A stretch of 64,000 bases of DNA from an uncultured Clostridia bacterium (lineage in GTDB: Bacteria > Bacillota > Clostridia > TANB77 > CAG-508), in assembly GCA_947594845.1 (NCBI GenBank), contig CANQEI010000004.1, forward strand, positions 29,890-93,889, given 5' to 3'. A program made the position numbers and the translations under genes. The notes beneath the pieces were generated by a model. It did not search any database. It was not told the DNA's origin and saw nothing but the letters and a program-made list of their open reading frames with translations. The first letter of the stretch is position 1. Every line of letters begins with the position of its first letter. Of the stretch, positions 17,333-39,680 are shown in pieces.

Positions 17333-17361
17333 TTGAAAAATGCCTATAGGTATAGTATAAT
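17333..17361 (+). promoter_or_regulatory. Sigma-A promoter of the giant surface-protein operon
   Basis: TTGAAA (17333-17338), 17-nt spacer, TATAAT (17356-17361), about 65 nt before the ATG at 17426. Confidence 0.6.
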
Positions 17362-22511: not shown

Positions 22512-25500
22512 ATGATGAATAACATAAAGAAAAAAATAATTTCAATTTTAACATTATTAACTTTAATAGCTGTAGCATATGCTGGATATAAAGTTTTAGC
22601 AACAGCAACAAATGAAATGTTATCCAAAGATGATAGCTTACCACCAAGTTTCCCATATATAGAATATAATACTTTGATTAGTGATCCATACATACTATGC
22701 TGTGGAAAAGGAATAACACTAAATGGTATGTCAAGAACAGTTGTAAGATCAGGGGATAGACAACAACAAGAACCTTATCTAACAATGAATGATATAGGTA
22801 AAAAAATATTTGAAGAAACTCAAAATGCAAGTGGAGATGTAACATCTAATAATTTTGAAAATCCATATGGTGCTACTACAAGTCGTACAATTGGTTTTTA
22901 TACAGAATCAGATAAAAAAGTTGCATCACCAATGGAAAGCTACATATTAGCAGAAGCATCTGAAAATTTACCATCACAAGGAAGCTCATTCTATAATGTA
23001 ACAGATAGAGAATATACAGGAGACCTTGATGCAGAAGCATATTTTTATAATGTAGAAGGAACTATAATATATGGTGTAAACATTGATGAAAATTCAGGAG
23101 AACCACAAGAATATGTTACACTAGATGAAGAGACAGGAAAATACTATTATATAGAAATAACTAATAGTGGAGAATTTTTCCCATACACATATGTACAATA
23201 TGCATGGTGGAAAACTCCAGCAGGTGGACAATCTAGCCAAGTACAATCAACACCATTTTTCAAAGAAGCAGAAGCATTTGAAGCATATATAAATAAAGTT
23301 GCAAAAAGAGATGAACAAGGAAAAATCGTTACAGAGCAAAAAACAGTCACAGTTAATGGAGAAACAGCAACAGTAACAGTTCCAGTAATAGATTATAAAA
23401 TTTCTGGAGAAGATGATAAATCACAAGTTTATTATGATGAAGACAATGGAAGATATTTAATAGGACCATTTGTATTACATTATTATGAAGAATCTGTAAC
23501 AACAGATAGAGGAACAGTATACTTTTCAAATATAACAGATGCAACAATAGTTAGCAATTTAGGCGCAGTAGATAATTCTAAATGGTTTTTCAAATATACA
23601 GATAGAGATGCAGACGATAAATCAACATTTCCACACAATAATGAAGAATTTTATATAGTAATGGACTATATAGAAGATATGAGATATTTGACAGATATAA
23701 GATTTGATTTTAGATACATGAATGCTGGAGGAGAATATTCAGAATTAAAAGGTGAATACTTTAATGCAAGTTGGGAACCAGAATCAAAAGCAATTTGGTG
23801 TAATGAAGGAGCAAAGAATTGTGCATGTGGAGGACACCATACAAGTGCTCAATATGATTCAAATAATAATTTAACATGTTCTGGCGGAGCAAAAAAATGT
23901 TCACATGGATATTATCATAATCACATTGTAAAATGGGAATATTGGCTAGAATTAGAAAGCTTAGATCCACAAACATCACAGCCATTAGCACAAGTATATG
24001 TAGGTGTAAGATGGTATGAAAAAGCAAATTATTCATTTAAAGCAGAATTTCCACCAGATGAACCAGGACCAAAAGAATATATAAAATTAACAATACCAAT
24101 GGCTGGAGAAGTATGGATAGATATATCTGCAGACAAGAAAAATCCTGATTTTACAGACGGAAAAAGAGAAAATGGAGAAAAAGGTTATAAAAATGCAGAA
24201 GTATATATCTATAAAACATATAAAAACAGTTCTGGTAAAATAGTAAAAAGAGAGTTAGCTGATATATATGATGAAGACAACGAAACAAAACTAAAATATC
24301 CTATTTACACAGACGAAAATGGACATTATGAAATTCCAAATATTAATGTGCCAGGCTCTGGAGACATGATAGAAAATGGATACACTATAGCATATGATGT
24401 AGAATTTAAATATGATGGACAACATTATGAGGCATCACCAGCATTACCAACAGTTAATGGAGATGCACAAAAATATATAAAAGCTTCTAAAAAAGCTAAG
24501 AAAACATATGAAAATGATTCATTAGCTACAGAAAACGAAAAAGTTAGAGAACAATTTAATGAAAAATTTTCAGAAATCTATGGCGGAAAAGCAATAGATA
24601 AAAATGGAGATACAACAGGATATGCTAAAAATGGAAATAACACTTTAAAATTAGATTACACTTCTGAAGAATATACATCACCTGATAATTCTAATAAAAG
24701 AAGACTATCAACATTAACAACTTTAGATAAAAATGAACATATAATTGAGCAATACAAAATGACTGCAACAACAGGAAATACAGGAATATATTTCCCAGTA
24801 AATCATAAAATTTCTTTAGACACAGCTGATGATGTTGTTGAATTAAGTGTTATCGAAAATGAAGATGGAAAAACAACTACATATAAAACAATCTATGATT
24901 ACATGTTACACATAAACTTTGGAGTAAAACAAAGAGAAAAAGCAGATTTATCTGTATTTAAAGATTTATACAAAGCAGAAATTTTAGTAAATGAAAAAGA
25001 AATAACTAAAACATATAACAAATACAGAGATGTGGAAGAAGAAGAAAATAAAGATGCTTTAGATATACAACTAGAAGCTTGCAAGATAGGAAAATATACA
25101 ATAGGATTATATAGCTCTGATTACGAATATCGTTCAACAGTTTATGAAACTAGCCAAGAAGTTGTTAAAAACATGAAAGCTGGAACAGATTTAAAAGTAT
25201 ACTTAACATATAGAATAGCTGTAAATAATGAAAGCCAAGCAGAAGAAGGATTAGATGCAACAATTAATCAAATTAATGATTATTATGATAAAACATTTAC
25301 TTTAATAGATTCTGATATTAGTGCAAACGTATTAGATGATAATCAAAATAGAGTAAACAAAGTAGTTGCAGAAAGCCCATACTATAGAGTCGTTAAAGCT
25401 GATGAAGACGCAGAATATACATATTGGTCTGACAATATGGAAAGATTCAAATGCAATGATACGAACAAAAAGGTAAACAAAGACTACAAAAAATTAACAA

Positions 25501-27695
25501 TAACAGATCTTAAAGGCACAAAATTATCAGCAGGAGATCAACTAGAAATGTTCATAACATTTGAAGTTGACAAAGACGGATATGTAGGAACAACTGATAG
25601 ACCAGAACTATTAGGAGAAAAGAATAATGTTGCTGAAATTGCAAATTACTCAACATTCTATCCAAATGGAAAAGTAGCTGGACTTATTGATAAAGATTCA
25701 GCTCCAGACAATATTGATTTGAATAGAAATGTAAAAGAGTGGTATGAAGATGATACAGAATCAGCACCAGCAACTAACATAGAACTATATGCTTATAACA
25801 GAGAAATTAATGGTACTGTTTGGGAAGACCAAGAAACTGTTAGCCTATTATATAATCAAAAAGTCGGCGATGGTTTAATGGAAGAACAAGAACCAGGTAT
25901 CAAAAATATTGATGTACAATTAGTAGAAAAAATTAAGATTGATGACATCGAATATGAAAAGATTTGGTCTGAAGACGACTTTAAAGGATTGACTGATGAA
26001 GAAAAGAAAGAATACAGATTAAAAGATGTTGAAACAGACGAAAATGGATATTACTATTTCAAAGGCGTATTAGCAGGAAACTATGTTGTAAGATTTAAAT
26101 ATGGAAATAAAGAAGCTAATATAAAATATAATGGTCAAGATTATAAAAATACTGCATATCAAGCAGAAATGCTAAATGAAGATGAAACAACAACATTAAA
26201 TAATGAATGGCAAGATTTAAAAACAAGTAATAAACTAAATGAAACTAGAGTATCAGATGCAAGAGATTATGAATTACAAAGAATGAAAGTAATAGCATAT
26301 TCTAAAAACATAAATAATCAAATAGGAACAGTATTAGAAAGTGCTGATAATCCTGATAAAAGCCATACAGAACTAATTGATAATACTCAAATGGTTGCTA
26401 ATACTGCAAAATTAAATATTGAAATTGAACATCAAGATTTCATTACTTATGGAACTGTTAAGAAGGTAAATGGATTACAAGAATTTACATACAATGTAAA
26501 AGATATAGACTTTGGATTAGAGAAAAGATCTGAAACCGCAATGGAACTTGACAAAAAAATATCAAAAATTTCTTTATATAAAGAAGATGGAGAAACTTTA
26601 TTATTAAATGCTATATATAATGAAGATGGAACAATTGATAGGACAAATCCAGAAGCAATGAGCTTGAATAAATTAACTCATGTTGATGAACAAAGTGATA
26701 TTCAAGGTTTAGATCATATCCATTCAGAAAGCGAATTTTTAAATGGAGCAACACTAAAAATTGAATACACAATAACTTTAACAAATAATTCAGAAGTAGA
26801 TTGGACAGGAAAAATTTCTAGATATGAAAAACCAGAAGAAATTATAGCAGAAGTAGAGAAACTAGAAAAATCTGATATATACGTATCAGGAGAATCAATC
26901 GAATATGGCGAATATGTAGGACTAAATTATTACAATAATAAGAACAATGATACTGACGAAATAGTTGAAACTAAGATAGAACAAATAATTGATTATATTG
27001 ACAATGATATTTCACCAGATGAAGATGCTAATTCACTAGTTGTAAATGAAAGCTGGAGAAAATTATCTTTAGATGAAATTAAAAATGGAAAAATGCTAGA
27101 TGAAAAAGTATACACAAATCTTAATGGAGAATTGACAATAGCAGATTCAAAACAAAGATCATTTATTGGTACAAATAAAAATAATATATTAGTTTCAGAA
27201 AGTGAAGAATATAATCCAAATGCAATTACTAAATTAGTACCTCAAAGTGCTGCTGAGGATTTAGACAAGAAATCAACTGGACAAATAAAAGTTGTAAGTA
27301 CAAAACAATTATCAGAAGAATCTTCAAAAGATGATGTTTATAATAATGTGGCTGAAGTATTAAGTTATTCAAATACAGTTGGTAGAAGAGATCCATTAGC
27401 AGTACCAGGAAATGCTGAAATAGCAAGAGGAGAATATGTTGCAGCAACAGGATATCAAAGCGGAGTACTAGTAATTGACTACGAAGGAGCAAAAGAAATA
27501 ACTATAGGAACATCAGAATTACACCTAAATGGTGAACGTGATACAGATGCATCAGATTATGTATCTATCGCAGAACCAACAGGTATTTCAATTAGAGAAT
27601 ACTATAGTAGAAATTACTATCCAATAATTGCATTAATTACAGGAAGTATATTAGTTGTAGCAATAATTGTAATAAAGAAAAAGATAAAAAAATAA
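22512..27695 (+). CDS. Giant secreted surface protein (1727 aa): signal peptide, Cys...Gln (TQXA-like) N-terminal domain, Cys/His cluster, two SdrD/Cna-B-type domains, C-terminal TM + KKKIKK anchor
   Basis: The start is 4 nt after the upstream stop, with SD AAGGAGGTG. SdrD-B-like units are AGEVWIDISADKKNPDFTDGKRENGEKGYKNAEVYIY...TDENGHYEIPNI and NGTVWEDQE...GIKNIDVQLV...TDENGYYYFKGVLAGNYVVRFKYG. The C-terminus is IAEPTGISIREYYSRNYYPIIALITGSILVVAIIVIKKKIKK. Confidence 0.85.
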   Translation: MMNNIKKKIISILTLLTLIAVAYAGYKVLATATNEMLSKDDSLPPSFPYIEYNTLISDPYILCCGKGITLNGMSRTVVRSGDRQQQEPYLTMNDIGKKIFEETQNASGDVTSNNFENPYGATTSRTIGFYTESDKKVASPMESYILAEASENLPSQGSSFYNVTDREYTGDLDAEAYFYNVEGTIIYGVNIDENSGEPQEYVTLDEETGKYYYIEITNSGEFFPYTYVQYAWWKTPAGGQSSQVQSTPFFKEAEAFEAYINKVAKRDEQGKIVTEQKTVTVNGETATVTVPVIDYKISGEDDKSQVYYDEDNGRYLIGPFVLHYYEESVTTDRGTVYFSNITDATIVSNLGAVDNSKWFFKYTDRDADDKSTFPHNNEEFYIVMDYIEDMRYLTDIRFDFRYMNAGGEYSELKGEYFNASWEPESKAIWCNEGAKNCACGGHHTSAQYDSNNNLTCSGGAKKCSHGYYHNHIVKWEYWLELESLDPQTSQPLAQVYVGVRWYEKANYSFKAEFPPDEPGPKEYIKLTIPMAGEVWIDISADKKNPDFTDGKRENGEKGYKNAEVYIYKTYKNSSGKIVKRELADIYDEDNETKLKYPIYTDENGHYEIPNINVPGSGDMIENGYTIAYDVEFKYDGQHYEASPALPTVNGDAQKYIKASKKAKKTYENDSLATENEKVREQFNEKFSEIYGGKAIDKNGDTTGYAKNGNNTLKLDYTSEEYTSPDNSNKRRLSTLTTLDKNEHIIEQYKMTATTGNTGIYFPVNHKISLDTADDVVELSVIENEDGKTTTYKTIYDYMLHINFGVKQREKADLSVFKDLYKAEILVNEKEITKTYNKYRDVEEEENKDALDIQLEACKIGKYTIGLYSSDYEYRSTVYETSQEVVKNMKAGTDLKVYLTYRIAVNNESQAEEGLDATINQINDYYDKTFTLIDSDISANVLDDNQNRVNKVVAESPYYRVVKADEDAEYTYWSDNMERFKCNDTNKKVNKDYKKLTITDLKGTKLSAGDQLEMFITFEVDKDGYVGTTDRPELLGEKNNVAEIANYSTFYPNGKVAGLIDKDSAPDNIDLNRNVKEWYEDDTESAPATNIELYAYNREINGTVWEDQETVSLLYNQKVGDGLMEEQEPGIKNIDVQLVEKIKIDDIEYEKIWSEDDFKGLTDEEKKEYRLKDVETDENGYYYFKGVLAGNYVVRFKYGNKEANIKYNGQDYKNTAYQAEMLNEDETTTLNNEWQDLKTSNKLNETRVSDARDYELQRMKVIAYSKNINNQIGTVLESADNPDKSHTELIDNTQMVANTAKLNIEIEHQDFITYGTVKKVNGLQEFTYNVKDIDFGLEKRSETAMELDKKISKISLYKEDGETLLLNAIYNEDGTIDRTNPEAMSLNKLTHVDEQSDIQGLDHIHSESEFLNGATLKIEYTITLTNNSEVDWTGKISRYEKPEEIIAEVEKLEKSDIYVSGESIEYGEYVGLNYYNNKNNDTDEIVETKIEQIIDYIDNDISPDEDANSLVVNESWRKLSLDEIKNGKMLDEKVYTNLNGELTIADSKQRSFIGTNKNNILVSESEEYNPNAITKLVPQSAAEDLDKKSTGQIKVVSTKQLSEESSKDDVYNNVAEVLSYSNTVGRRDPLAVPGNAEIARGEYVAATGYQSGVLVIDYEGAKEITIGTSELHLNGERDTDASDYVSIAEPTGISIREYYSRNYYPIIALITGSILVVAIIVIKKKIKK

Positions 27696-27710
27696 AGTTA
27701 AAAAATAAGA

Positions 27711-27750
27711 AATCTAGTTAGAAAATATTTCTAACTAGATTTTTTATTTT
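27711..27750 (+). terminator. Rho-independent terminator of the surface-protein operon
   Basis: Perfect 14-bp stem aatctagttagaaa (27711-27724) / tttctaactagatt (27728-27741), 3-nt loop, T-run. Confidence 0.85.
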
Positions 27751-27817
27751 GCATATATATTCACAAATTGGAAAAAATAGCAATAAAACCAAAAACAAGA
27801 GGAGAAGAAAAATTCCA

Positions 27818-30800
27818 ATGGAAAAATATAAATACTTAAATATAAAAGGAACCAATTTAGAAAAAGAGCAATTACAAAAGTATTTACAACAAATGGCAGA
27901 GGAACAGATAATAAGCAAAAATTCTGAAACCTTAACATATCCAATTGAAAAATTAAAAATAAATTATAGAAATATATTAAAAACATATGAAATATTAAAT
28001 GAGCATTTAAAATTAGGAATAAAAATACATTCTGCTGGAGAATGGCTACTCGACAATTTTTATATAATAGAAGAATCAATTAAAAACATAGAAAAAAATA
28101 TAAATTTAAAAAAATATGTTAAATTACCAGGATTAAGTAATGGCAAATATAAAGGATTCGCAAGAATATATGTGCTAGCTAGTGAAATTGCAGCTTTTAG
28201 TGGAGATAAAATTGATGAAGAGAAAATAATTGATGCACTTCAAAGCTATCAGACAAGGAAAATTTTATCAATGGAAGAAATTTGGAATATAGGTTTATTT
28301 ATTCAGATAGCAATAATACAGACTATTGCAGATATAAGTGAAAAAATTTATTTTTCGCAAATCCAAAAGTATAAAGTAGAAAATATATTTGAAAGATTAA
28401 TAGAAGCTAAAACAAATAAAGAACAAAGATTTAGAAAAAAATTTAAAAATAATAATTCATTAAAAATAAAAGATATAAATTATTCTTTTATTGAATATAT
28501 GTTGTATAAGCTTAGAAGAATTGGCAAAAGAGGAAATCAGTATATTGAAATATTAGAGAAACAAGTAAATAAGTTAGGCTTTAAAACAGATGAAATCGTG
28601 AAAAAGGAACATTTATATGTAGCAACACTTAAAATAAAAATAGGAAGTTGCATAACTAGTATAAAAGATATAAATAGAATTAATTTTCAAAAAGTATTTG
28701 AAAAAACTAATAAAACTGAAGAATTACTAAATGAAGATCCTTGCAAAGTATTTAAGAAAATGACAGAAGAAACTAAAGAGGTTTATAGAGAAAAGATAAA
28801 AGAAATATCAAATAAATTGAAAATATCTGAAATATATATAACAGAAGAAATATTGAAATTATCAAATAGATATAAAGACGAAAAAAATGTAAAAGAAAAA
28901 AGGAAATCACATGTAGGATATTATTTAATTGATGACGGAAAAAATGAATTAATGGAGGAATTAACTGAAAAAAGGATTAAGAAAAAACACAAGTTAAATC
29001 CAAAAACATACATTAATGGAATTATTTTTATATCACTCTTTATAGATCTTTTTTTTGTGTGGAATTTAAAAATGCCAGCATTAGTTAGCCTAATAACTGC
29101 AATCTTAATATATATACCAATCTATGAAATAGTAATAAAAATTATAAATTATATAATGTGTAAAATTATAAAACCAATAAAAATACCTAAGATAGATTAT
29201 GAAAATGGAATTGATGATGAAAATAAAACAATGGTAGTAATACCAACTGTTATAGATACAAAAGAAAAAATTATAAAAATGTTTAAAAAGATGGAAGTAT
29301 ATTATTTAGCAAACCAAGATAAAAACTTGTATTTTACCTTATTGGGGGATTGCACAAGTTCTGAAAAAGAAGTGGAAAAAATTGATCAAGAAATTATAGA
29401 ATGTGGAAAAAAAGAAGCGGAAAAATTGAATTCAATATATAAAACTAAAAATAAGTTTAATTTTTTATATAGAAGAAGAAAATGGAATCCAAATGAAGAA
29501 AAATTTCTAGGATGGGAGAGAAAAAGAGGTTTATTAATACAATTTAATGAACTTATATTAGAAAAAAACAAATCAGACTTTATTGCTAACACATTAGAAG
29601 ACTTTGATGAAAAAATAAAATATATAATAACATTAGATGCTGATACAAATTTAATTATTAATTCTGCACAACAACTAGTTGGGGCAATGAGTCATATCTT
29701 AAATAGACCTATAGAAGAAGAGGGTGTTATAAAAAAAGGATATGGAATAATGCAACCTAGGATTGGTATAACATTAGAAGATTCACAAAAAACAATATTC
29801 ACTAAAATATTTACATCAAATCCAGGTGTAGATTTTTATACAAATGCCATATCAGATTTATATCAAGATTGCTTTGGAGAAGGGATATTTACTGGAAAAG
29901 GTATATATGACTTAAATGTATATCAAAAAATACTAAAAAATAAATTACCAGAAAATAAAATATTGAGTCATGATTTGTTAGAAGGAAATTACTTAAGATG
30001 TGCTTTAGTATCAGATATTGTACTTTTAGATTCATTTCCAACTAAATATTTATCATATTTAGAAAGAGAAAATAGATGGATAAGAGGAGATTGGCAAATT
30101 TCTGGCTGGTTGGAAAGAAAAATAAACAATGAAAAAAATCCAATAAATAGTTTAAGTAAATTTAAAATATTTGAAAATTTAAGAAGAAGTGTATTACCAA
30201 TAACACAAATAACATTACTAATTTTTTCAATGCTAATAAATAATTTCTTTATAGCAATTGTTGTACTTTTATCTGTATTCACAGGCAGCATATTAGAGAT
30301 AATAAATAAAATAATTTTTAGAAAAAGCATAACAGAAGAAAAAATATATGCGAATAAAAAATTTGATAAAACAATTTCAGGTATAAAAGAATGCGTATTA
30401 AGAAATTCATTGGAATTTACATTTATTCCAACAACATCATTAAATTCTGCAACTGCAATAATAAAAACAATATATAGGCTAAAGAAAAATAAAAAGTTAT
30501 TGGAATGGAAAACGTCTGAAGAAGTTGAGAAAAAATCTATAGATTCTTTAGAGTATTATTGCAAAAAAATGTGGATTAATATAATAATTGGAATATTAAT
30601 GTTTGGAATAATAAATCCTTTTGGAATGATTATAGGAACATTATGGATTTTAGGACCATATATTGCATGGAATATAAGTAGAGATATAAGAAAAACAAAA
30701 ATAATAAATGAAAAAAGTAAAAAATATTTAATTGAAATTGCAAAGGAAACATGGATATATTTTAGTGAAAGTTTTAAAAGTGAAAATAATTTTTTGACAC

Positions 30801-33800
30801 CTGATAATTTTCAATTAGGGAGAAAAAAAGAATTTGTAAATAGGACTTCATCAACTAATATTGGGTTAGAAATATTATCAATAATTTCCGCATATGATTT
30901 AAAATTTATTAGCTTAGAAGAATGCATAAGTTCACTAAATAAAGTAATAAATACAATACAGAAATTAGAAAAATGGAATGGACACTTATACAATTGGTAT
31001 AACATAAAGACACTAAAACCATTGACTCCTAAGTATATATCAACAGTAGACAGCGGAAATTTTATTGGATATTTGTATTGCCTAAAAAATTTTTTAATAA
31101 GTAAAAATCAACCAGAAAAAATGATAGAAACAGTTAGCAAGATAATTGACGATACTGATTTTAAATTATTGTATAGTAACAAAAATAGATTATTTTCCAT
31201 AGGTTTTGATGTTGAAAATAACAAATTAACAGATTCTTATTATGATTTTTTAGCTTCAGAAGCAAGGCAAACGAGTTTTATTGCAATAGCCAAAAAAGAT
31301 ATAAAATATAAACATTGGACAAATTTAAGTAGAACATTAACATCTTCAAATGGATATAAAGGACTTATTTCTTGGTCTGGAACAGCATTTGAATACTTAA
31401 TGCCAAATTTAATAATGAAAGTTCCAGAAGGAAGTTTAATAGATGAATCTTGCAAATTTGCTAAAATCAGCCAATTAGAATATGCTAAAAATAATTCAAT
31501 ACCATGGGGAATTTCAGAATCAGCATATTCACTAAAAGATTTACAAAGTAATTATCAATATAAAGCATTTGGAATACCTGAACTAGGTTTAAAAAGAGGA
31601 CTAGAAGAAGAATTTGTAGTATCTCCATATAGTACTTTTTTATTTTTAGAATATGCTTTAGAAGAGGGAATAAAGAACTTAAAACAATTAGAAAAATTGG
31701 GTGCAAGAGGAAAATATGGATTTTATGATTCAATAGATTTTACCAAAGAAAGAATAAGAGAAAATAAAAAATATGAACTTGTAAAAACTTATATGGCACA
31801 CCATCAAGGATTAATATTGAACTCAATAAATAATATTATAAATAATAATATTTTATCAACAAGATTTAGCAATAATCCAGAAATTAAGTCAATAGAAATA
31901 TTATTAAATGAAAGAATGCCAGAATCAGTTATATTATCAAAAGAAAATTCTAACAAAGTAATAAAAGGAAAATATGTAAATAAATATGAAGATAAAGAAA
32001 TTGCTTACAAAAATGAAAATATATATAGAAGAGTAAATGCAATTTCTAATAATGATTACACATGCGTAATTGATACATCAGGAAAAGGATATAGTAAATA
32101 TCAGAATATTCAAATAAATAGATACAGAAATAGAAATAAAGAAAAAGAAGGAATTGCATTTTTTATTAAAAATCAGAGAAATAAAAAAGTATGGAGTACA
32201 TTTAAAAGCGACGAAATAAAGTTTACACAATATAAAGAAGAATTTACAAAAAGAGAAGATAATATAGAAACAAAAATGAAATTTTTTCTATCACCAGATG
32301 AACCTGGAGAAATTAGAAGTCTAAAATTAAAAAATCATGGAGTTTTGAAAGAAGAATTAGAAATATATAGTTATATAGAACCAATTTTATCAGAAAATAA
32401 AGATGATATAGCACATCCAATTTATAATAACATGTTCTTAAAATTAGAATATATAAAAGGAATAATAGTTATATCAAGGAAAATAAAAGAAAGAACAATT
32501 TATTTAGGAGTAAAATTACTAACTCCAAATGATGAAGAAACAGAAATAGAATTAGATAAAGAAAAATTTTGGGGAAGAAATTCAGAGTATCCTAAAAGTA
32601 TAATAGAAACAGATAATTTTACAAACGAATTAATAGAAACAGTAGAACCAATAGTTGCAATAAAAACAAAAATAGAAATAAGTCCGAAAGAAGAAAAAGA
32701 AATTGATTTATTATTATATATTTCAGAAAATAAAGAAGACCTAATAAATAAGATTGAAAGTATGAACATTGAAAATGTTAATAAAGATTTAGAATTAGCA
32801 AAAGCAAAAAGCGAAGAAGAAATAAAATTCTTAGAGATTAATGGAAATAAAATTGAAAACAATCATAAAATATTAGGACATTGCATAGAAAAAGACTTAC
32901 CTAAAACAATTGATATAGATTATAAAATAGAAAACGTTTGGAAATTTGGAATATCCGGAGATAATCCGATTATATTGGCTAAAATAAAAAATATAGAAGA
33001 AGCACATTTAGTCGAAGAACTTCTAGAGACTATTGAATTTTTTAATGTAAAAAACATAAGGATAGATCTATGTATATTAAATAATGAAAAAATAAGTTAT
33101 GAAACATTTGTAAAAGATGAAATAAACGAAATTATAAAAAATCATAGATTAGAATATCTAAGGAATAACCAAATTTTTGTATTTAACAAAAATGAATTAA
33201 CTGAACAAGATATACAAATAATACAAAGTATTTCATGTATGTGCTTTGATGGAGAAATCGGAGGAGTAAAAAACAATTTAGATGAAATTGAAAACATAGA
33301 AATAATCAGTGCAACACAAGAATACGAAAAAAGTAGTAAGAATGAAGAAGTAGAAAAAAGTAATCTAATATATGATAACTCGTTTGGAGGATTTTTAAAT
33401 GATGAATATGTAATAAATGTAAATAATGAAAATGTACCTCCACGAGTATGGAGCAACATTATTGCAAATAAAAAAATAGGAACAGTAATTACAGAAAACT
33501 TAGGAGGATACACTTGGATAAATAATTGTAGATTAAATAGAATTACAACTTGGGAGAACGATAGTATCAGAGATTTTTCAACAGAAACATTTTATATAAA
33601 AGATATAGATGAAAAACAATATTGGACATTAGGGTCAGAACCAAAATATAATTCATATCAAGTAAAATATGGACAAGGTTATGCAAAATTTATTCAAATC
33701 AATAACAATCTTGTTCAAGAAAATACAATATTTATACCAATTAATGGAGAAAGTAAAATAAATCATATTAGCATAAAAAATAAACTACCAAGTAAGAGAA

Positions 33801-35680
33801 AAATCACTATTTATTATGCTCTTGATTTAACAATGGGAGAAACAAAAGAAAAAAACTTAGGAAAAATTAGAGCAATAAAAGATAAAAACAATATTATAAT
33901 AGATAATGTGTGTAAAAGTGAATTTGATGATAAGATAAAAATAACATCTGATTTTAAAATAAATTCATATACTAACAGCAAATATGAATTCTTTAATAAA
34001 GACATGGAAGCTATTGGAATAAATAAAAAAATATTAAAATGTTTCGGAAATATTTCACAAGGAAATGAGATAGTTATAGAAATACCAATTGAACTTGAAG
34101 AATATGAAAAAAAGCTAGTAAATATAATTATAGGAAACGATGCCGAAAAATATTTAAACAATAATGATGTAGAAAATGAATTTGAAAATGTAGAAAAATA
34201 TTGGCGTGAAAAAACTGGAATTGTAAAAATAAAAACACCATCAGAAAAGATAAATTTATATATGAACAAATGGCTTGTATACCAAACCATTACAAGTAGA
34301 TTAAATGCCAAAACTGGGTTTTATCAATCTGGAGGTGCAACCGGATTCAGAGACCAATTACAAGATTCTATAGGAATGAAGTGGATTGATGAAGAAATTT
34401 TGAAACAGCAAATAATAGAAGCTGCTAAACACCAATTTATCGAAGGAGATGTAATGCATTGGTGGCACACAAAAAACAAATCAGGAATTAGAACAAACAT
34501 ATCAGATGATTTATTGTGGCTACCATATAGCGTATTAGAATATTTAAAATTTACAGAAGATGCGAGTATATTAGATGAAAAAATTGAATATGCAAAAGGA
34601 ATTGAACTAGAAGGAGAAAAGGAAAAATATGATAAATTTGAATATACAAAAGAAAAGGAAAGTCTATATCAACATTGTATGAGAGCAATTGAAAAATCTC
34701 TAAACTTCGGGAAAAATGGATTCCCTAAAATCGGAACTGGAGATTGGAATGATGGATTTAACAAGATTGGGCATAAAGGTCAAGGAGAAAGTGTATGGCT
34801 AGGTTTCTTTCTATATGATATATTAAGAAAATGGGAAAATGTCATAGAATATAAAAATGAGAGTAAAGAAAAATATAGTAATATAAGAAAAGAATTAAAA
34901 AAATCATTAAATGAAAATGGCTGGGATGGATTTTGGTTTAAAAGAGCAATAACAGATGACGGAGAAATTATCGGAAGTAGCAAAAGTAAAGAATGTAAAA
35001 TAGATAGTATTACACAGAGCTGGTCAGTAATTTCAGAAGCGGGAAATAATGATAAAAAGTATATAGCAATAGAATCTGCTAAAAAATACTTAATAGACGA
35101 AGAGAATAAAATAATAAAACTATTAACACCTCCATTTAATGGAGAAACTAATCCAGGATATATACAAGAATATCCTAATGGTGTAAGAGAAAATGGAGGG
35201 CAGTATACACATAGTGCAATATGGCTTATTATGGCTTTCGCAAAATTAGGTATGATAGATGAAGCAGTAAAGTATTTAGAAATGATTAATCCAATAACAC
35301 ATACAGAAACAAAAGAAGGAGTAATTAAATATAAAATAGAGCCATATGTAATTCCTGGAGATGTTTATAATAATAAATTTATGAATGGTAAAGGAGGATG
35401 GAGCTGGTATACTGGTTCTAGCAGCTGGTATTACAAAGTATGCTTAGAAGATATTTTAGGAATAAAGAGAGCAGGAAAAAAATTGTTTATTCCAAATAAA
35501 ATTCCAAATAATTGGGATAAATTTGAAATACAATACAGATATAAAAGTAATTTATATAATATAAAAGTAATGAAAGATAATACAGAGAAATCAATAAAAT
35601 ATAATGGTGAAAAAATAAATACAGAATACATTGAGTTAAAAGATGATAACAAAATTGAAAATATTGATATAAAATTGTAA
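27818..35680 (+). CDS. Cyclic beta-1,2-glucan synthase (Cgs/NdvB/ChvB) homologue, ~2620 aa: N-terminal domain, GT84 glycosyltransferase, TM helices, (alpha/alpha)6 cyclisation-type domain, C-terminal GH94 phosphorylase-type domain
   Basis: Family motifs, read in order. N-terminal domain: GEWLLDNFYIIEE. GT84: VVIPTVIDT, ITLDADTN (29635-29643), GIMQPRIG, LSHDLLEG (29966-29986), ENRWIRGDWQ (30074-30097). Cyclisation-type domain: RTSSTNIGLEILS, STVDSGNF, SWSGTAFEYLMP, PWGISESAY, YMAHHQGL. GH94: GFRDQLQDS, HWWH, GTGDWNDG (34733-34756), NGGQYTHSAIW, SWYTGSSSWYY. I place the start at ATG 27818 because the ATG at 27749 in the ORF track lies inside the upstream terminator T-run. Confidence 0.85.
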   Translation: MEKYKYLNIKGTNLEKEQLQKYLQQMAEEQIISKNSETLTYPIEKLKINYRNILKTYEILNEHLKLGIKIHSAGEWLLDNFYIIEESIKNIEKNINLKKYVKLPGLSNGKYKGFARIYVLASEIAAFSGDKIDEEKIIDALQSYQTRKILSMEEIWNIGLFIQIAIIQTIADISEKIYFSQIQKYKVENIFERLIEAKTNKEQRFRKKFKNNNSLKIKDINYSFIEYMLYKLRRIGKRGNQYIEILEKQVNKLGFKTDEIVKKEHLYVATLKIKIGSCITSIKDINRINFQKVFEKTNKTEELLNEDPCKVFKKMTEETKEVYREKIKEISNKLKISEIYITEEILKLSNRYKDEKNVKEKRKSHVGYYLIDDGKNELMEELTEKRIKKKHKLNPKTYINGIIFISLFIDLFFVWNLKMPALVSLITAILIYIPIYEIVIKIINYIMCKIIKPIKIPKIDYENGIDDENKTMVVIPTVIDTKEKIIKMFKKMEVYYLANQDKNLYFTLLGDCTSSEKEVEKIDQEIIECGKKEAEKLNSIYKTKNKFNFLYRRRKWNPNEEKFLGWERKRGLLIQFNELILEKNKSDFIANTLEDFDEKIKYIITLDADTNLIINSAQQLVGAMSHILNRPIEEEGVIKKGYGIMQPRIGITLEDSQKTIFTKIFTSNPGVDFYTNAISDLYQDCFGEGIFTGKGIYDLNVYQKILKNKLPENKILSHDLLEGNYLRCALVSDIVLLDSFPTKYLSYLERENRWIRGDWQISGWLERKINNEKNPINSLSKFKIFENLRRSVLPITQITLLIFSMLINNFFIAIVVLLSVFTGSILEIINKIIFRKSITEEKIYANKKFDKTISGIKECVLRNSLEFTFIPTTSLNSATAIIKTIYRLKKNKKLLEWKTSEEVEKKSIDSLEYYCKKMWINIIIGILMFGIINPFGMIIGTLWILGPYIAWNISRDIRKTKIINEKSKKYLIEIAKETWIYFSESFKSENNFLTPDNFQLGRKKEFVNRTSSTNIGLEILSIISAYDLKFISLEECISSLNKVINTIQKLEKWNGHLYNWYNIKTLKPLTPKYISTVDSGNFIGYLYCLKNFLISKNQPEKMIETVSKIIDDTDFKLLYSNKNRLFSIGFDVENNKLTDSYYDFLASEARQTSFIAIAKKDIKYKHWTNLSRTLTSSNGYKGLISWSGTAFEYLMPNLIMKVPEGSLIDESCKFAKISQLEYAKNNSIPWGISESAYSLKDLQSNYQYKAFGIPELGLKRGLEEEFVVSPYSTFLFLEYALEEGIKNLKQLEKLGARGKYGFYDSIDFTKERIRENKKYELVKTYMAHHQGLILNSINNIINNNILSTRFSNNPEIKSIEILLNERMPESVILSKENSNKVIKGKYVNKYEDKEIAYKNENIYRRVNAISNNDYTCVIDTSGKGYSKYQNIQINRYRNRNKEKEGIAFFIKNQRNKKVWSTFKSDEIKFTQYKEEFTKREDNIETKMKFFLSPDEPGEIRSLKLKNHGVLKEELEIYSYIEPILSENKDDIAHPIYNNMFLKLEYIKGIIVISRKIKERTIYLGVKLLTPNDEETEIELDKEKFWGRNSEYPKSIIETDNFTNELIETVEPIVAIKTKIEISPKEEKEIDLLLYISENKEDLINKIESMNIENVNKDLELAKAKSEEEIKFLEINGNKIENNHKILGHCIEKDLPKTIDIDYKIENVWKFGISGDNPIILAKIKNIEEAHLVEELLETIEFFNVKNIRIDLCILNNEKISYETFVKDEINEIIKNHRLEYLRNNQIFVFNKNELTEQDIQIIQSISCMCFDGEIGGVKNNLDEIENIEIISATQEYEKSSKNEEVEKSNLIYDNSFGGFLNDEYVINVNNENVPPRVWSNIIANKKIGTVITENLGGYTWINNCRLNRITTWENDSIRDFSTETFYIKDIDEKQYWTLGSEPKYNSYQVKYGQGYAKFIQINNNLVQENTIFIPINGESKINHISIKNKLPSKRKITIYYALDLTMGETKEKNLGKIRAIKDKNNIIIDNVCKSEFDDKIKITSDFKINSYTNSKYEFFNKDMEAIGINKKILKCFGNISQGNEIVIEIPIELEEYEKKLVNIIIGNDAEKYLNNNDVENEFENVEKYWREKTGIVKIKTPSEKINLYMNKWLVYQTITSRLNAKTGFYQSGGATGFRDQLQDSIGMKWIDEEILKQQIIEAAKHQFIEGDVMHWWHTKNKSGIRTNISDDLLWLPYSVLEYLKFTEDASILDEKIEYAKGIELEGEKEKYDKFEYTKEKESLYQHCMRAIEKSLNFGKNGFPKIGTGDWNDGFNKIGHKGQGESVWLGFFLYDILRKWENVIEYKNESKEKYSNIRKELKKSLNENGWDGFWFKRAITDDGEIIGSSKSKECKIDSITQSWSVISEAGNNDKKYIAIESAKKYLIDEENKIIKLLTPPFNGETNPGYIQEYPNGVRENGGQYTHSAIWLIMAFAKLGMIDEAVKYLEMINPITHTETKEGVIKYKIEPYVIPGDVYNNKFMNGKGGWSWYTGSSSWYYKVCLEDILGIKRAGKKLFIPNKIPNNWDKFEIQYRYKSNLYNIKVMKDNTEKSIKYNGEKINTEYIELKDDNKIENIDIKL

Positions 35681-35752
35681 AAAAAACTTGTAGAAAAATT
35701 TCCTTTATGATATATATTATGTTATAAATATGAGAAAGAAAGGGGTATCCTT

Positions 35753-36505
35753 GTGGAAGAAGTAGATATTGGAAGAGATTTTAATCGAAAAACTATATTA
35801 GTTGTTGATGATGAAGAAAGTATAGTTGATTTATTAGTATACCACCTACAAAAAGAAGGATATGACACATTACAAGCATACGATGGAGTAACAGCTGTAG
35901 AAATGGCATTAAAAGAAAAACCAGACTTAATATTATTAGATGTTATGCTTCCAAAAATGGACGGAATAAGTGTATGCAAAAGAATTAGATATTCGCTAAA
36001 TGTGCCAATATTAATGATATCTGCAAAAGATACAGAACTAGATAAGGTTGTAGGACTTGAAATGGGAGCAGACGATTATATAACAAAACCATTTCAACAC
36101 AGAGAAGTTATGGCAAGAATAAAAGCAAACTTAAGAAAAGCTGAATTAGTCGCACAAGCAGAATTAAAGAGCGAAAATTCAGAGAATGAAGGAAATATAA
36201 TAACTGTAGGAGATTTAACTCTTGATTTAAAAAAGGTTGAAGCTAGAGTTAAAGGAGAAATCGTAGACTTAACAATAAAAGAATTTGAAGTTTTAAAATA
36301 CTTGGCAACACAACCAGGAGAAGTTGTAACTAGAGAAACTCTTCTAAAAAAAGTTTGGGGATACGACGATTATGTTGGAGCTATTCGTACGGTAGATGTT
36401 ACAGTAAATAGAATAAGAGATAAAATAGAAAAAGATAAAGCAAATCCAAAAATATTAGTAACTAAAAGAGGCGTAGGCTATTATGTTATTGGAGATAAAC
36501 AATAA
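35753..36505 (+). CDS. OmpR/PhoB-family response regulator (WalR/PhoP-like)
   Basis: Receiver ILVVDDEESIVDLL...PDLILLDVMLPKMDG...ISAKD and winged helix LTIKEFEVLKYL...RTVDVTVNRIRDKIE...VTKRGVGY. GTG start follows AAAGGGG. No terminator separates it from the upstream giant gene. Confidence 0.92.
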   Translation: MEEVDIGRDFNRKTILVVDDEESIVDLLVYHLQKEGYDTLQAYDGVTAVEMALKEKPDLILLDVMLPKMDGISVCKRIRYSLNVPILMISAKDTELDKVVGLEMGADDYITKPFQHREVMARIKANLRKAELVAQAELKSENSENEGNIITVGDLTLDLKKVEARVKGEIVDLTIKEFEVLKYLATQPGEVVTRETLLKKVWGYDDYVGAIRTVDVTVNRIRDKIEKDKANPKILVTKRGVGYYVIGDKQ

Positions 36506-36555: not shown

Positions 36556-36600
36556 AAAAAGGGGAGGGGGACTCTAACAGGTTAGAGTCCCCCTATTTTT
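36556..36600. terminator. GC-rich bidirectional terminator at the 3' end of the inserted minus-strand gene
   Basis: 13-bp arms gggggactctaac (36566-36578) / gttagagtccccc (36581-36593). T-runs are present on both strands. Confidence 0.8.
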
Positions 36601-36614
36601 ATGAATGTTTCGCG

Positions 36615-37946
36615 CTAGTTAATCAAAGTTCCGTTAGAATCAAATGAGTACCACCGACCATCAATCAGCTTATTTCCAGTCACGTAACAGCCTGTTTCCG
36701 GATCAACATACTTCCAAAAATAGCCGCTTTTTATCCAGCCAGTCAACAGCCTGCCATCCTTTTGCAAGTAGTAGTAATTTTTACCATCGGCAGATTGAAT
36801 AGACGTATCTTTGGCGAGAACGCCATCAGAGTCGAAGTAATACCAACTTCCATCAATTCTCTGCCAACCAGTAAGCATCATACCGGAAGAATTCAAGTAA
36901 TATGTCTTGTTATTCCAGTCGAGCCAACCAGTAACTCTCCTACCATCCTCGCAAAGGAAGTACCAATTTGTGCCGTCCCAATGCCACGTATTTTTCAACA
37001 TAGCACCACTATTTTCGAAGAAATACCAGTAACCCTCTCGAGTAAGATACCAGCCGGTAATCATACTTCCGTCATCTCTGAACCCATAGGCCTTACCATC
37101 AATGACGTAAAATTTACCAGCTAAATAGGATCCTTGCCAATAGTAGTACCAATTTCCATCAATAAACTTCCAACCGTCGGTGGAATACTTATTAGATGGT
37201 GTTACGTTCGGCGTAGGTGTGCAACCCGAATTATAGAAATCCAACTCATCCCAGTAGTAGAATTCATCAGATTCGACATATTCGGAATCACGTAACACGC
37301 CAGAATACTTTGCCTTGGGAACTGCCTTGACTTTGAATGTTACATCTTCCCAATAGTAATCGGATGACAACAGCCAGGAAGAAAGATCATAGTAGTTGTC
37401 AGAGATGTTTTCAGCAATAACCTTTCCACTATTACCATTTTTGCAAAGCCTGATGGTATAGTTTACTTTATTGCTTACTTTAGACCATCTCGCCACACCA
37501 TTCTCTTCCCAGTAAAGATCCGATGGGGAATATGCATAGCCTCTGACTTGGTATAGAAGTGTAACTGAAATGCTACCGTCATCCAAATACTCAAAAGAGT
37601 CATATTCACCATTTGTGACAGTAAATGAACTCTTTTTTAGTGAGCTTTTGAAGAAGTAGCCCGACTTAGGAGAAATTGTCACAGTTACATAAACAAAATC
37701 TCCTGGCTCGCAGTAAGCCACATTTGATTCCCAGTATACGCCACCATAGGGGATGTAATACCCAGTTCCACTTACAGTAACTGCTGGATTGCCGGATGTC
37801 TGTCCCCAGTCGTTCTTTTCAATCCGAATGTTTACTTTCGAGATTGAACTGGCAGCATATGCCGTTGCCGATGTTGCGGTGGAAAAAAGCATGAACACCA
37901 TTACCACGCAACTTAAACCAATGAAAAACCGCTTTGTACCCTTCAT
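36615..37946 (-). CDS. Secreted protein with about nine C-terminal cell-wall/choline/glucan-binding repeats (CW_binding type) and an uncharacterised N-terminal half; foreign codon usage
   Basis: Signal peptide MKGTKRFFIGLSCVVMVFMLFSTATSATAYA. The C-terminal ~190 aa hold ~20-aa repeats of the form GW..(D)G.WYYF...G.M.TGW (e.g. TGWQRIDGSWYYFDSDGVLA, TGWLDWNNKTYYLNSSGMMLTGW). Codons CGG, CTG, GCC, ATC, TTC and TAC are frequent, whereas neighbouring genes end almost every codon in A/T. Confidence 0.85.
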   Translation of the reverse strand: MKGTKRFFIGLSCVVMVFMLFSTATSATAYAASSISKVNIRIEKNDWGQTSGNPAVTVSGTGYYIPYGGVYWESNVAYCEPGDFVYVTVTISPKSGYFFKSSLKKSSFTVTNGEYDSFEYLDDGSISVTLLYQVRGYAYSPSDLYWEENGVARWSKVSNKVNYTIRLCKNGNSGKVIAENISDNYYDLSSWLLSSDYYWEDVTFKVKAVPKAKYSGVLRDSEYVESDEFYYWDELDFYNSGCTPTPNVTPSNKYSTDGWKFIDGNWYYYWQGSYLAGKFYVIDGKAYGFRDDGSMITGWYLTREGYWYFFENSGAMLKNTWHWDGTNWYFLCEDGRRVTGWLDWNNKTYYLNSSGMMLTGWQRIDGSWYYFDSDGVLAKDTSIQSADGKNYYYLQKDGRLLTGWIKSGYFWKYVDPETGCYVTGNKLIDGRWYSFDSNGTLIN

Positions 37947-38216: not shown

Positions 38217-39680
38217 ATGTTAAAAAGTACACAAATAAAAATTGTTTTGATATTTATGATACTTGGAATTTTTATGTTATCAATTCAAGGAATAATATTT
38301 TCAACACAGCTACAAAAAGTATCATTAGAGACAAATGGAAATGAATTAATTGTAGAAACAATAAAGTCACAAATACATCAACAACAAGTAATAACAATTG
38401 TTTTAATAGTAATATTTACAATCGTTTCTATACTCGTTGGAATATTCGTTGCTAAAACTATACTAGAACCGATGTCAAAACTTACTAAAAGTGCTGAAAT
38501 AGCAGCTAAGGGTGGACAATATCAGATAAAGTATTTAGGAGAAGGAAAAAATAAAAACGAAGTAGATGAATTAGCAAAAGCATTCAATTTAATGCACAAT
38601 GAGTTAAACGAAAATTTAAAAGAAGTATCAAGGCAGAAAAAACAAATAGAAACTATTTTATTGCACATGAATGATGGAATATTAGCTTTTAATATAAACG
38701 GCGATATAATCCATAAAAATAGTGCAGCAGACAAACTATTTGGATTGACAGGGAAAGAAAAGAATTTTAATGAAATATTTGATAAATTAGATGTTAATAT
38801 AAATTTAGAGAAAATAATTTACTTAGAAAATTGGACTTCAACTCAGGAAAGAATATCTGTAGGAGAAAAGACACTAAACTTATTTTTTGCAGCTTTTAGA
38901 GATGAGGCAGAAAGACCAGGAGGAGCAATAGTTGTTATACAAGATATTACTGAGCATGTTAAACTAGATTCAATGAGGACAGAATTTGTTGCAGATGTAT
39001 CACATGAATTAAAAACTCCAATTACTTCAATAATGGGATATGCAGATACGTTATTAGAAGATGACTGTGATAAAGCAACAACAGAGAAATTTTTAAAAAG
39101 AATATCAACACAAGCTAATAGAATGGCTGTATTAGTTAGCGATTTATTAACATTATCAAGATATGATGCAGACATGATAAAAAATAGAGAAGAAGAATTT
39201 GACTTAGGAGAATTAGTAAAAAATACATATGACACCTTATCCTTCGAAATAGAACAAAAAAACCAAAAAGCAGAATGTTTTGTAACAGCTGATGTACCAC
39301 ATGTAAAAGCTGATAAAGCTGGAATAGAAAGAGTTGTTACAAATATCTTAACAAATGCAATAAAATATACTCCAGAAAATGGAGAAATAAAGATATATGT
39401 TGGTTTTGTCTATAATGATGCATATATTAAGGTAATAGATAATGGAATTGGAATTCCAGAAGAAGACTTAGAAAGAGTATTTGATAGGTTTTATAGAGTA
39501 GATAAAGCACGTACAAGAGAAATGGGAGGAACAGGATTAGGCTTATCAATTGCAAAAGAAATATTAGAAAAGAACAACTCAAAAATAAATATAAATAGCG
39601 AATTGGGAAAAGGAACAGAAGTAGTAATAAGAATACCTGCAATGAAAAGTGAAGACAATTCTGCTAATAAAACTGTTTAA
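38217..39680 (+). CDS. Sensor histidine kinase (WalK/PhoR/ResE-like; 2 TM, HAMP, PAS-like, HisKA, HATPase)
   Basis: TM helices at residues ~10-30 and ~58-80, H-box VSHELKTPITSI, N-box TNILTNAIKYTP, G1 DNGIGIP, G2 GGTGLGLSIAKE. Confidence 0.92.
   Translation: MLKSTQIKIVLIFMILGIFMLSIQGIIFSTQLQKVSLETNGNELIVETIKSQIHQQQVITIVLIVIFTIVSILVGIFVAKTILEPMSKLTKSAEIAAKGGQYQIKYLGEGKNKNEVDELAKAFNLMHNELNENLKEVSRQKKQIETILLHMNDGILAFNINGDIIHKNSAADKLFGLTGKEKNFNEIFDKLDVNINLEKIIYLENWTSTQERISVGEKTLNLFFAAFRDEAERPGGAIVVIQDITEHVKLDSMRTEFVADVSHELKTPITSIMGYADTLLEDDCDKATTEKFLKRISTQANRMAVLVSDLLTLSRYDADMIKNREEEFDLGELVKNTYDTLSFEIEQKNQKAECFVTADVPHVKADKAGIERVVTNILTNAIKYTPENGEIKIYVGFVYNDAYIKVIDNGIGIPEEDLERVFDRFYRVDKARTREMGGTGLGLSIAKEILEKNNSKININSELGKGTEVVIRIPAMKSEDNSANKTV

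Follow-up and report, generated by a model that had tools for sequence, protein, structure and literature searches.

Cyclic beta-1,2-glucans are the subject of work on osmoprotection in the periplasm and on the virulence or symbiosis of Brucella, Agrobacterium and the rhizobia. A gene for a cyclic glucan synthase (Cgs) in a monoderm bacterium of the gut Clostridia raises the question of what such an enzyme does there, when it is made and where its glucan goes. In the present study, we analysed such a gene, cgs, at positions 27818..35680 (+) in a stretch of 64,000 nucleotides of contig CANQEI010000004.1 from an uncultured Clostridia bacterium. This whole stretch, called the window below, is AT-rich (about 23-33% G+C, ~27% overall); it represents the source genome, and the relatives were represented by 10-kb flanks of their cgs genes. 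The explanation that we find best, and in which we place slightly more belief than doubt, is that a complete Cgs is transcribed as a unit of its own from a forespore promoter of the sigma-F class, and that its glucan would be placed in the spore. We infer the sigma-F dependence, the spore localisation and the physiological role from the evidence given below.

The open reading frame list holds one single frame from 27749 to 35680 (+), with its first ATG at 27818 behind a Shine-Dalgarno-like AGAGGAG at 27798-27804; this start defines a protein of 2620 amino acids (aa). In the preliminary description of this DNA the product had been taken for a Cgs/NdvB homologue, complete in length and with its domains in the canonical order, and ten motifs had been quoted, each of which was found exactly once and in the order described: WLLDNFY (aa 76), DAD (607), SHDLLEG (717) and RWIRGDWQ (753) in the N-terminal half, TSSTNIGLE (1010), SWSGTAFEYLMP (1185) and PWGISESAY (1229) in the cyclization region, and FRDQLQDS (2177), GDWNDG (2308) and GGQYTHS (2460) in the GH94 part. 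The full-length claim was borne out by a sequence search of the Protein Data Bank (PDB), in which the protein matched the Cgs of Agrobacterium tumefaciens (8RF0/8RF9) along its whole length with 1348 bits. The same search matched the cyclization domain of TiCGS from Thermoanaerobacter italicus (8WY1) at 431 bits, and the GH94 phosphorylases in the PDB matched the C-terminal third only. The Pfam annotation that had been proposed as a check gave a Glycoamylase domain at aa 1141-1353, two GH94 supersandwich stretches and a GH94 catalytic domain at 2128-2548 (E 4e-99); no NCBIfam model matched the protein. The PDB matches, as sequence matches, are far above chance, and on their strength the protein is very probably a Cgs.

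The N-terminal scaffold domain (27818..29008, +; aa 1 to ~397) includes WLLDNFY and aligns with 8RF9 from residue 41 onward, which is residue 60 onward in the numbering of 8RF0 and of the paper that describes its scaffold role (PMC10901819). It is followed by the membrane anchor and GT84 region (29009..30682, +; aa ~398-955), aligned by HMMER to 8RF0 with an E of 2.4e-81, in which the glycosyltransferase (GT) core covers ~aa 447-790. Putative membrane helices were placed by a Kyte-Doolittle scan and by eye, and we found three hydrophobic hairpins, at ~398-446, 791-830 and 916-955, in positions homologous to the six membrane helices of the Agrobacterium enzyme. Thus, the earlier statement that transmembrane helices follow the GT motifs holds for four helices (791-830 and 916-955), but two of them (398-446) precede the GT core. 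By analogy with the solved enzyme, the soluble domains would be cytoplasmic. The GH189-type cyclization (transglycosylase) domain (30695..31972, +; aa ~960-1385; 8WY1 match with E 1.5e-122) comes next and lacks a four-helix insert. The remainder is the GH94-type phosphorylase half (31973..35677, +; aa ~1386-2620), defined by Pfam and by alignments to 8RF0. Within it lie two supersandwich subdomains with a Rossmann-fold-like subdomain between them, at ~aa 1707-1850, as well as the catalytic domain named above; aa 1707-2061 align with Agrobacterium residues 1886-2263.

For the catalytic apparatus, 15 functional residues established by mutagenesis or structure were taken from PMC10901819 and PMC10834661 and were mapped by HMMER alignments, the deposited 8RF0 chain carrying the paper numbering and the 8WY1 chain (construct 1005-1591) being offset by 1003. 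In the GT site of A. tumefaciens Cgs, UDP is bound by D527 and D624, the DxD motif consists of D624/D626, the RW motif includes R773, and D739 acts as the base; the glucan primer is attached covalently to Y694, the cyclase pocket contains S1101, D1104 and E1300, and the phosphorylase site D2393 and D2528 (PMC10901819). In TiCGS the nucleophile is E1442 and the acid/base E1356, and E1400 with H1536/H1537 tunes their pKa (PMC10834661). We found that D511, D607/D609, D719 and R753 of the window protein correspond to D527, D624/D626, D739 and R773 of the Agrobacterium enzyme. The tyrosine Y674 (in GVDFY) aligns with the primer tyrosine Y694 (in GIDPY, within the IF1-homology loop), and its glucosylation is predicted from this alignment. 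In the cyclization domain, E1148, E1192, E1234 and H1328/H1329 correspond to E1356, E1400, E1442 and H1536/H1537 of TiCGS, and S1075 and D1078 correspond to the cyclase-pocket residues S1101 and D1104 of the Agrobacterium enzyme, whose E1300 is also kept. In the GH94 half, D2179 and the catalytic acid D2312 correspond to D2393 and D2528, so that every Agrobacterium residue listed here, from D527 to D2528, is kept in the window protein. All 15 positions were invariant (120/120) in a MAFFT alignment of the best 120 homologues (about 46-74% identity). The preliminary description had named missing catalytic residues as grounds for rejecting its proposal; checked against the characterised Cgs enzymes, none is missing.

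The fold of the cyclization domain agrees with this assignment. An AlphaFold2 model of aa 960-1401 (window 30695-32020), built from a 12-sequence alignment, is of moderate quality (pLDDT 67.5, pTM 0.76) and was used for the fold match alone. Its best Foldseek matches were 8WY1 and the Agrobacterium enzyme, with TM-scores of 0.79-0.80 when normalised by the query and 0.62 when normalised by the longer target, followed by GH144 and related bacterial beta-1,2-glucanases and a fungal GH162 enzyme. Among the structural relatives of this domain are also proteins of gut Bacteroides deposited as 'putative glucoamylase' (3EU8, 4QT9 and 4GL3) and a Parabacteroides beta-1,2-glucanase (5Z06). Such beta-1,2-glucan-degrading folds in gut Bacteroidetes and a synthase in a clade of gut Clostridia may possibly form a producer-consumer pair.

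Compared with known systems, the enzyme is of a known kind, and one partly characterised member comes from a Firmicute. The Agrobacterium Cgs shares the domain order, from the scaffold and the six helices (predicted in the window protein) through GT84 and the cyclization domain to a GH94 half that includes the Rossmann-fold-like subdomain; its deposited chain has 2818 residues against 2620 aa in the window protein, and its host is a diderm alphaproteobacterium, in contrast to the low-GC gut Clostridia considered here. For the cyclization domain, the nearest relative with a solved structure is TiCGS (Thit_1831), also from a Firmicute and the founding member of GH189, whose isolated cyclization domain makes cyclic beta-1,2-glucan in vitro (PMC10834661); in the papers found there was nothing on its expression or cellular role. 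The C-terminal half shares its fold and catalytic aspartate with GH94 1,2-beta-oligoglucan phosphorylases (Lin1839 of Listeria innocua and SOGP of Lachnoclostridium phytofermentans) and with cellobiose and chitobiose phosphorylases, and the catalytic GH94 domain alone matches 8HO9 and 4ZLE with E ~1e-47. Those phosphorylases are soluble, stand-alone, catabolic enzymes of ~800-1100 aa, whereas the window domain is fused to a synthase and by analogy would serve in chain-length control. The earlier remark that the family is already annotated in Firmicutes is correct, since CAZyme surveys list homologues and TiCGS has been studied in vitro. On what Cgs does in Gram-positive cells, or on a link to sporulation, the open-access literature yielded CAZyme inventories only.

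One feature of the family was overlooked in the preliminary description: the cyclization domain has no four-helix insert. The alignment of this domain runs contiguously in the window protein; the Agrobacterium enzyme is interrupted by ~148 aa (about 1117-1263), an insert that helps dimer formation, and TiCGS by ~150 aa of extra mid-domain helices (chain ~151-304). In the cryo-EM structure, the four-helix domain and the GH94 half form the Cgs dimer (PMC10901819), and the TiCGS paper describes the extra helices as unique to CGSs (PMC10834661). The insert was absent from all 120 nearest homologues. A HMMER search with the cyclization domain retrieved 6908 proteins at E <= 1e-3, and when insert length was measured from the HMMER domain coordinates, 53 of the best 150 cluster representatives were contiguous and 94 had an insert of 24-216 residues (median 143). 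The insert-less form is thus frequent among the representatives, which argues for a substantial natural subfamily and not for an assembly error. As judged from these alignments, the insert-less clade of gut and rumen Clostridia is a new element, and this non-catalytic insert is the sole family feature that the window protein lacks. Such a natural variant is a test case for whether the four-helix dimer contact is needed in the synthesis cycle.

The evidence on when the enzyme may be made comes from the region upstream of cgs. Between the preceding gene (stop at 27695) and cgs lies a hairpin with a T-run, likely a terminator (27702..27750, +; found by terminator scan), whose stem at 27710-27742 has a folding energy of -24.1 kcal/mol (z = -10.2 against shuffles). 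The upstream operon has its own sigma-A promoter, a perfect match to TTGAAA-17-TATAAT at 17333-17361 (+). A terminator after the upstream operon, together with that operon's own promoter, therefore makes cgs a separate transcription unit. Directly behind the terminator we found a sigma-F-type promoter-like element (27751..27779, +) with the -35 box GCATA at 27751-27755, a 14-nt spacer and the -10 box GGAAAAAATA at 27770-27779, ending 38 nt ahead of the ATG. It agrees with the consensus at 13/13 positions and is the sole 13/13 match within the window. From the upstream terminator to the start of cgs, no sigma-A-like -10 element could be seen, and Rfam, at its gathering threshold, reported only one tRNA in the window and no riboswitch or known RNA upstream of cgs or of the genes of the preceding operon.

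The element is conserved far beyond the window. When the upstream regions of nine close genomes were aligned, only GYATA and, 14 nt further on, GGAAAAAATA were conserved and the rest could not be aligned. Promoter statistics were then drawn from the best 80 of the 275 genome loci that encode Cgs relatives in a species-level genome collection. The bipartite motif GYATA-N14/15-G[G/C/T]AAANAMTA was present in essentially all 80 genomes. The -35 box was GCATA in 38 of them, GTATA in 34 and GAATA in 8, always with the leading G (80/80); the spacer had 14 or 15 nt and differed in sequence among clades; and the -10 block read G(80)-[G26/C45/T9]-A-A-A(80)-N-A(79)-[A/C]-T(80)-A(80), with its end 25-50 nt (median 34) ahead of the start codon. 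On a 13-point scale made from the published consensus, the interval -130..-15 scored at least 12 for cgs in 74/80 genomes versus 3/457 flanking open reading frames of the same genomes, and random 270-nt windows of these loci reached this score in 1.3% of cases. As an environmental control we used 80 distant, insert-bearing cgs loci from metagenomes (40-70% G+C); unlike cgs in the window, none of the 67 with usable upstream sequence had the promoter (0/67 at a score of at least 12). A pattern search of 3.9 Mb gave 72 matches, 58 of them directly 5' of cgs. The other strict matches included sites before four tandem pilin-like genes in locus L067 (19233, 21207, 23524 and 24683, +), before an M16 peptidase gene orthologous to window 45395-46675 (L001 26212 and L026 26373, +), and before the gene of a small TauE-like membrane protein (L020 7222 and L048 7390, +); their status as forespore promoters is putative.

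For the choice of the sigma factor we relied on published consensus sequences and mapped promoters. In Bacillus subtilis the -35 and -10 consensus elements are GTATA and GGNAANAMTR for sigma-F, GNATA and CAWAMTA for sigma-G, TYATATTT and KCATANANTN for sigma-E, and KCACM and GCATANNNTA for sigma-K (PMC3416734). The forespore consensus of Clostridioides difficile is very similar, and a conserved G at the -10 box's upstream side separates sigma-F from sigma-G (PMC3789822). Mapped C. difficile promoters are GTATA-14-GGTAAAAATA for spoVT, GTATA-15-GGAGAAATTA for sspB and GTATA-15-GTCAATAATC for spoIIQ (PMC7438776, Table S5), and the window element GCATA-14-GGAAAAAATA is a near copy of the spoVT promoter. 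The sigma-F regulon promoters of B. subtilis and C. difficile share with the cgs motif the -35 box GYATA, the spacer of 14-15 nt, the -10 box G(G)NAANAMTA with its leading G and the distance to the start codon; they differ in their second -10 G, where the cgs motif has C in 45/80 genomes. The T of the CATA core of sigma-E and sigma-K promoters was absent in 80/80 genomes. From the consensus fit, the mapped C. difficile promoters and the missing CATA T, we read the element as forespore sigma-F-type and possibly recognised by sigma-G too. Sporulation-specific expression of cgs in the forespore is, on this reading of the sequence, moderately probable. No cyclic glucan synthase was reported in any sporulation regulon in the open-access papers searched, and the putative sporulation-type promoter of cgs would be a new element.

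The proposed mechanism would begin with the synthase being made in the forespore from the sigma-F-type promoter. If it works like its Agrobacterium homologue, the GT84 domain would glucosylate its own Y674 and, at the cytoplasmic face, use UDP-glucose to lengthen a beta-1,2 chain. The GH94 domain would trim this chain by phosphorolysis (D2312), and the GH189 domain would close the ring by transglycosylation, with E1234 as nucleophile and E1148 as acid/base, releasing cyclic beta-1,2-glucan into the cytoplasm; by analogy with the solved enzyme, this glucan, in rings of about 17-25 glucose units, is the expected product. It would then accumulate in the future spore core or, were an unlinked exporter to act, would instead enter the space between the two forespore membranes, the site of the cortex. 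That space is topologically a periplasm and is the only periplasm-like compartment of a monoderm. In the solved Agrobacterium enzyme all catalytic domains are cytoplasmic and export proceeds via a separate transporter, and synthesis therefore needs no periplasm (PMC10901819). The puzzle raised in the preliminary description, that an organism without a periplasm has no compartment for the product, is for this reason weaker than it was made out to be.

Several observations weigh against the forespore explanation. The sigma-F assignment is a fit of sequences, and the majority form of the -10 box, with C in the second position, resembles the sigma-E/K element KCATANANTN, though the conserved T of that element occurs in 0/80 genomes. 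No other flank gene shows the motif: the CwlD-like, deacetylase, transglycosylase and other neighbours have background scores and give no calibration. Loss of the insert could alter the oligomeric state or the product length. A fused ABC exporter of the Cgt/ChvA/NdvA type was not found in the window (Pfam, nearly all open reading frames of at least 150 aa) or in the 10 kb around 81 related loci; the environmental cgs loci were nearly as empty, with such an exporter near 1/80, so that exporter linkage is uninformative. The sporulation genes in view, within 64 kb and 10-kb flanks, lie at or below their cut-offs: a gene for a CwlD-like amidase is near cgs in 25 loci (TIGR02883, 221.5 bits at a cut-off of 221.55), and the window encodes a penicillin-binding protein that resembles SpoVD (563 bits at a cut-off of 688). 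A sigma-E-type promoter upstream of the SpoVD-like gene was sought by eye, and what was seen was unconvincing. These two kinds of genes lend indirect support to the view that the lineage sporulates. The preliminary description had called the organism sporulation-type, which could not be read from the gene content of the window and becomes plausible only through the sigma-F-type promoter and the CwlD- and SpoVD-like genes.

The gene appears to have been inherited vertically. A protein database search gave 2710 clusters at E <= 1e-10, with the nearest relative at 74% identity, a small clade at 61-74% and a large clade at ~48%; in the species-level collection, too, no genome came closer than 74%. 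The best 80 genome loci all came from gut and rumen metagenomes, in genomes named as uncultured Clostridia or Clostridium sp., and the isolate names indicate samples from the human gut and from rabbit, deer and other animals. In the close clade the gene order is giant gene 1, giant gene 2, cgs, response regulator, histidine kinase, signal peptidase, holB and PSP1. The order from cgs to PSP1 was kept in 17 of the 66 loci with enough downstream sequence, down to a Cgs identity of 41% (Clostridium sp. CAG:793), and it looks like a conserved chromosome backbone. The identities of Cgs and of the syntenic holB run in parallel across genomes (75/73, 67/67, 52/48 and 47/46%), and this tracking argues for vertical descent over recent transfer. 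A recent horizontal transfer from Proteobacteria was ruled out by the holB tracking and by the cyclization domain itself, which scores 412 bits against TiCGS versus 297 bits against the Agrobacterium enzyme.

The alternative that survives best, and which we still judge unlikely, is a vegetative envelope function, in which the synthase would be controlled with the adjacent WalRK-like two-component system and its glucan, after export into the wall zone or medium, would serve in osmoadaptation, biofilm formation or host interaction. The regulator in question is an OmpR-family response regulator (35753..36505, +) with Pfam domains Response_reg and Trans_reg_C (best NCBIfam match YycF/WalR, 290 bits at a cut-off of 340), and its probable partner is a HAMP-PAS-HisKA-HATPase histidine kinase (38217..39680, +; Pfam; best NCBIfam match WalK, 349 bits at a cut-off of 725); the two genes are adjacent in most relatives. 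Periplasmic cyclic glucans of Proteobacteria have roles of just this kind in osmoadaptation, biofilm and host interaction (PMC10901819), and the conserved order of cgs, regulator and kinase in the 17/66 loci mentioned above fits the same idea, as do envelope genes that neighbour cgs elsewhere (peptidoglycan transglycosylase, polysaccharide deacetylase and amidase). Moreover, the 72-nt gap between cgs and the regulator contains no terminator (terminator scan; fold z = -0.96), and read-through is therefore possible. However, this gap also holds a sigma-A-type promoter-like element (35688..35716, +), with -35 TTGTAG at 35688-35693, a 17-nt spacer, TG at 35708-35709 and -10 TATATA at 35711-35716. 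Within the gap, the blocks CTTGTAnAAA and TGATATA and the ribosome-binding site GAAAGGGGTAT are kept in nine genomes and the remainder varies, so that the regulator would have its own conserved promoter. The regulator is 92-98% identical where Cgs is 61-74% identical, as would be seen for a core gene; cgs does not stand beside this regulator in 49/66 loci; and no linked exporter was found. Upstream of cgs, the missing sigma-A-like -10 element and the nearly universal sigma-F-type motif speak against vegetative expression as well. Co-transcription with the regulator, which the preliminary description had considered apparent, is favoured by the open gap but countered by the regulator's own promoter and its pairing with a WalK-like kinase; the sequence neither requires nor excludes it, and a functional link is not indicated.

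A second alternative accepts the motif as a promoter but assigns it to another alternative sigma factor, whether sigma-B-like, an ECF stress factor or the mother-cell factors sigma-E/K, so that the enzyme would be stress-induced or made in the mother cell. In its favour, sigma-F, sigma-G and sigma-B are related group-3 factors with GG-containing -10 elements. Furthermore, the majority form GCAAACAATA fits 6/7 specified positions of the sigma-E/K -10 element KCATANANTN (PMC3416734). Against it stand the CATA-core T missing from every one of the 80 genomes, the invariant leading G of the -35 box (80/80), which is like GNATA and unlike TYATATTT or KCACM, and the spacing and both boxes, which reproduce the mapped C. 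difficile sigma-F promoters. We therefore regard assignment to another factor as improbable, a little more so than the vegetative function.

Functional drift, by which the insert-less enzyme would no longer be a dimeric assembly line and would yield linear or other-sized beta-1,2-glucan, or act as a phosphorylase or transglycosylase on imported glucans, can draw on the ~150-aa dimer-contributing insert missing from the window protein and its 120 closest homologues and on the isolated TiCGS cyclization domain, which gives linear or cyclic products by substrate length (PMC10834661), but it is very improbable, because no catalytic residue of the three activities varies within the clade, nor does the primer tyrosine, which is hard to explain unless the whole cycle is retained, because the GH94 half also contributes to the dimer, and because insert length is continuous from 0 to 216 aa across the family, suggesting a dispensable decoration.

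Further features of the region were noted. The two giant genes upstream of cgs (17426-22507 and 22512-27695, +) encode surface proteins of 1693 and 1727 aa, each with a signal peptide and, at the C-terminus, a membrane anchor with a lysine-rich tail; DUF11 and SdrD-B repeats occur in the first, and the second has no Pfam match above the gathering cut-off. They adjoin cgs in the closest clade only (61-74% Cgs identity). In the 45-48% clade, the gene directly 5' of cgs, on the same strand and ~90-180 nt away, codes for a protein of ~280-300 aa that is rich in lysine and has a single membrane helix. This protein (L030, L056, L027, L011 and ~18 others) falls into two related clusters in 22 loci, and has neither an NCBIfam match nor the sigma-F-type motif before its gene. 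In the distant clade (L023, L046, L051, L070 and others), cell-wall or signalling genes recur one to three genes 5' of cgs. They encode the CwlD-like amidase (25 loci) and a monofunctional peptidoglycan transglycosylase (13), and in 9 loci each a polysaccharide deacetylase and a response-regulator-GGDEF protein; a further recurrent neighbour encodes a cysteine-rich protein of 154 aa (14). Downstream, the regulator is followed by a strong bidirectional terminator (36565-36594, both strands; terminator scan and fold). A gene with choline-binding repeats (36615-37946, -) lies between regulator and kinase in a 2-kb region of ~39% G+C, against ~27% for the window, and is shared with two relatives only (L010 and L081); it looks like a later insertion that split the two-component operon. 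Elsewhere, an acetyl-CoA carboxylase alpha-subunit frame (59007-59471, +) covers only the C-terminal half of its Pfam model (169-310 of 310) and starts with TTG after a gap behind the beta-subunit gene, and a frameshift or a miscalled start may account for this.

Overall, our analysis describes a complete Cgs for which forespore expression is the best explanation. A spore-related physiological role for the glucan can be put forward only tentatively, and we are similarly cautious about the wider proposal that cyclic beta-1,2-glucan is a spore component, in the core or in the intermembrane space, across a large, uncultured clade of gut and rumen Clostridia. Should the promoter be misassigned, the gene would simply add an ordinary member to an enzyme family already known. 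If the wider proposal is true, it would give a new role to a molecule known only from the periplasm and the secretions of diderm bacteria, and the substrate of the beta-1,2-glucanases (GH144) of gut Bacteroidetes would have a candidate source in these Clostridia. It would also bring a new class of molecule into spore biology, and with it an unrecognised glucan from abundant uncultured gut anaerobes.

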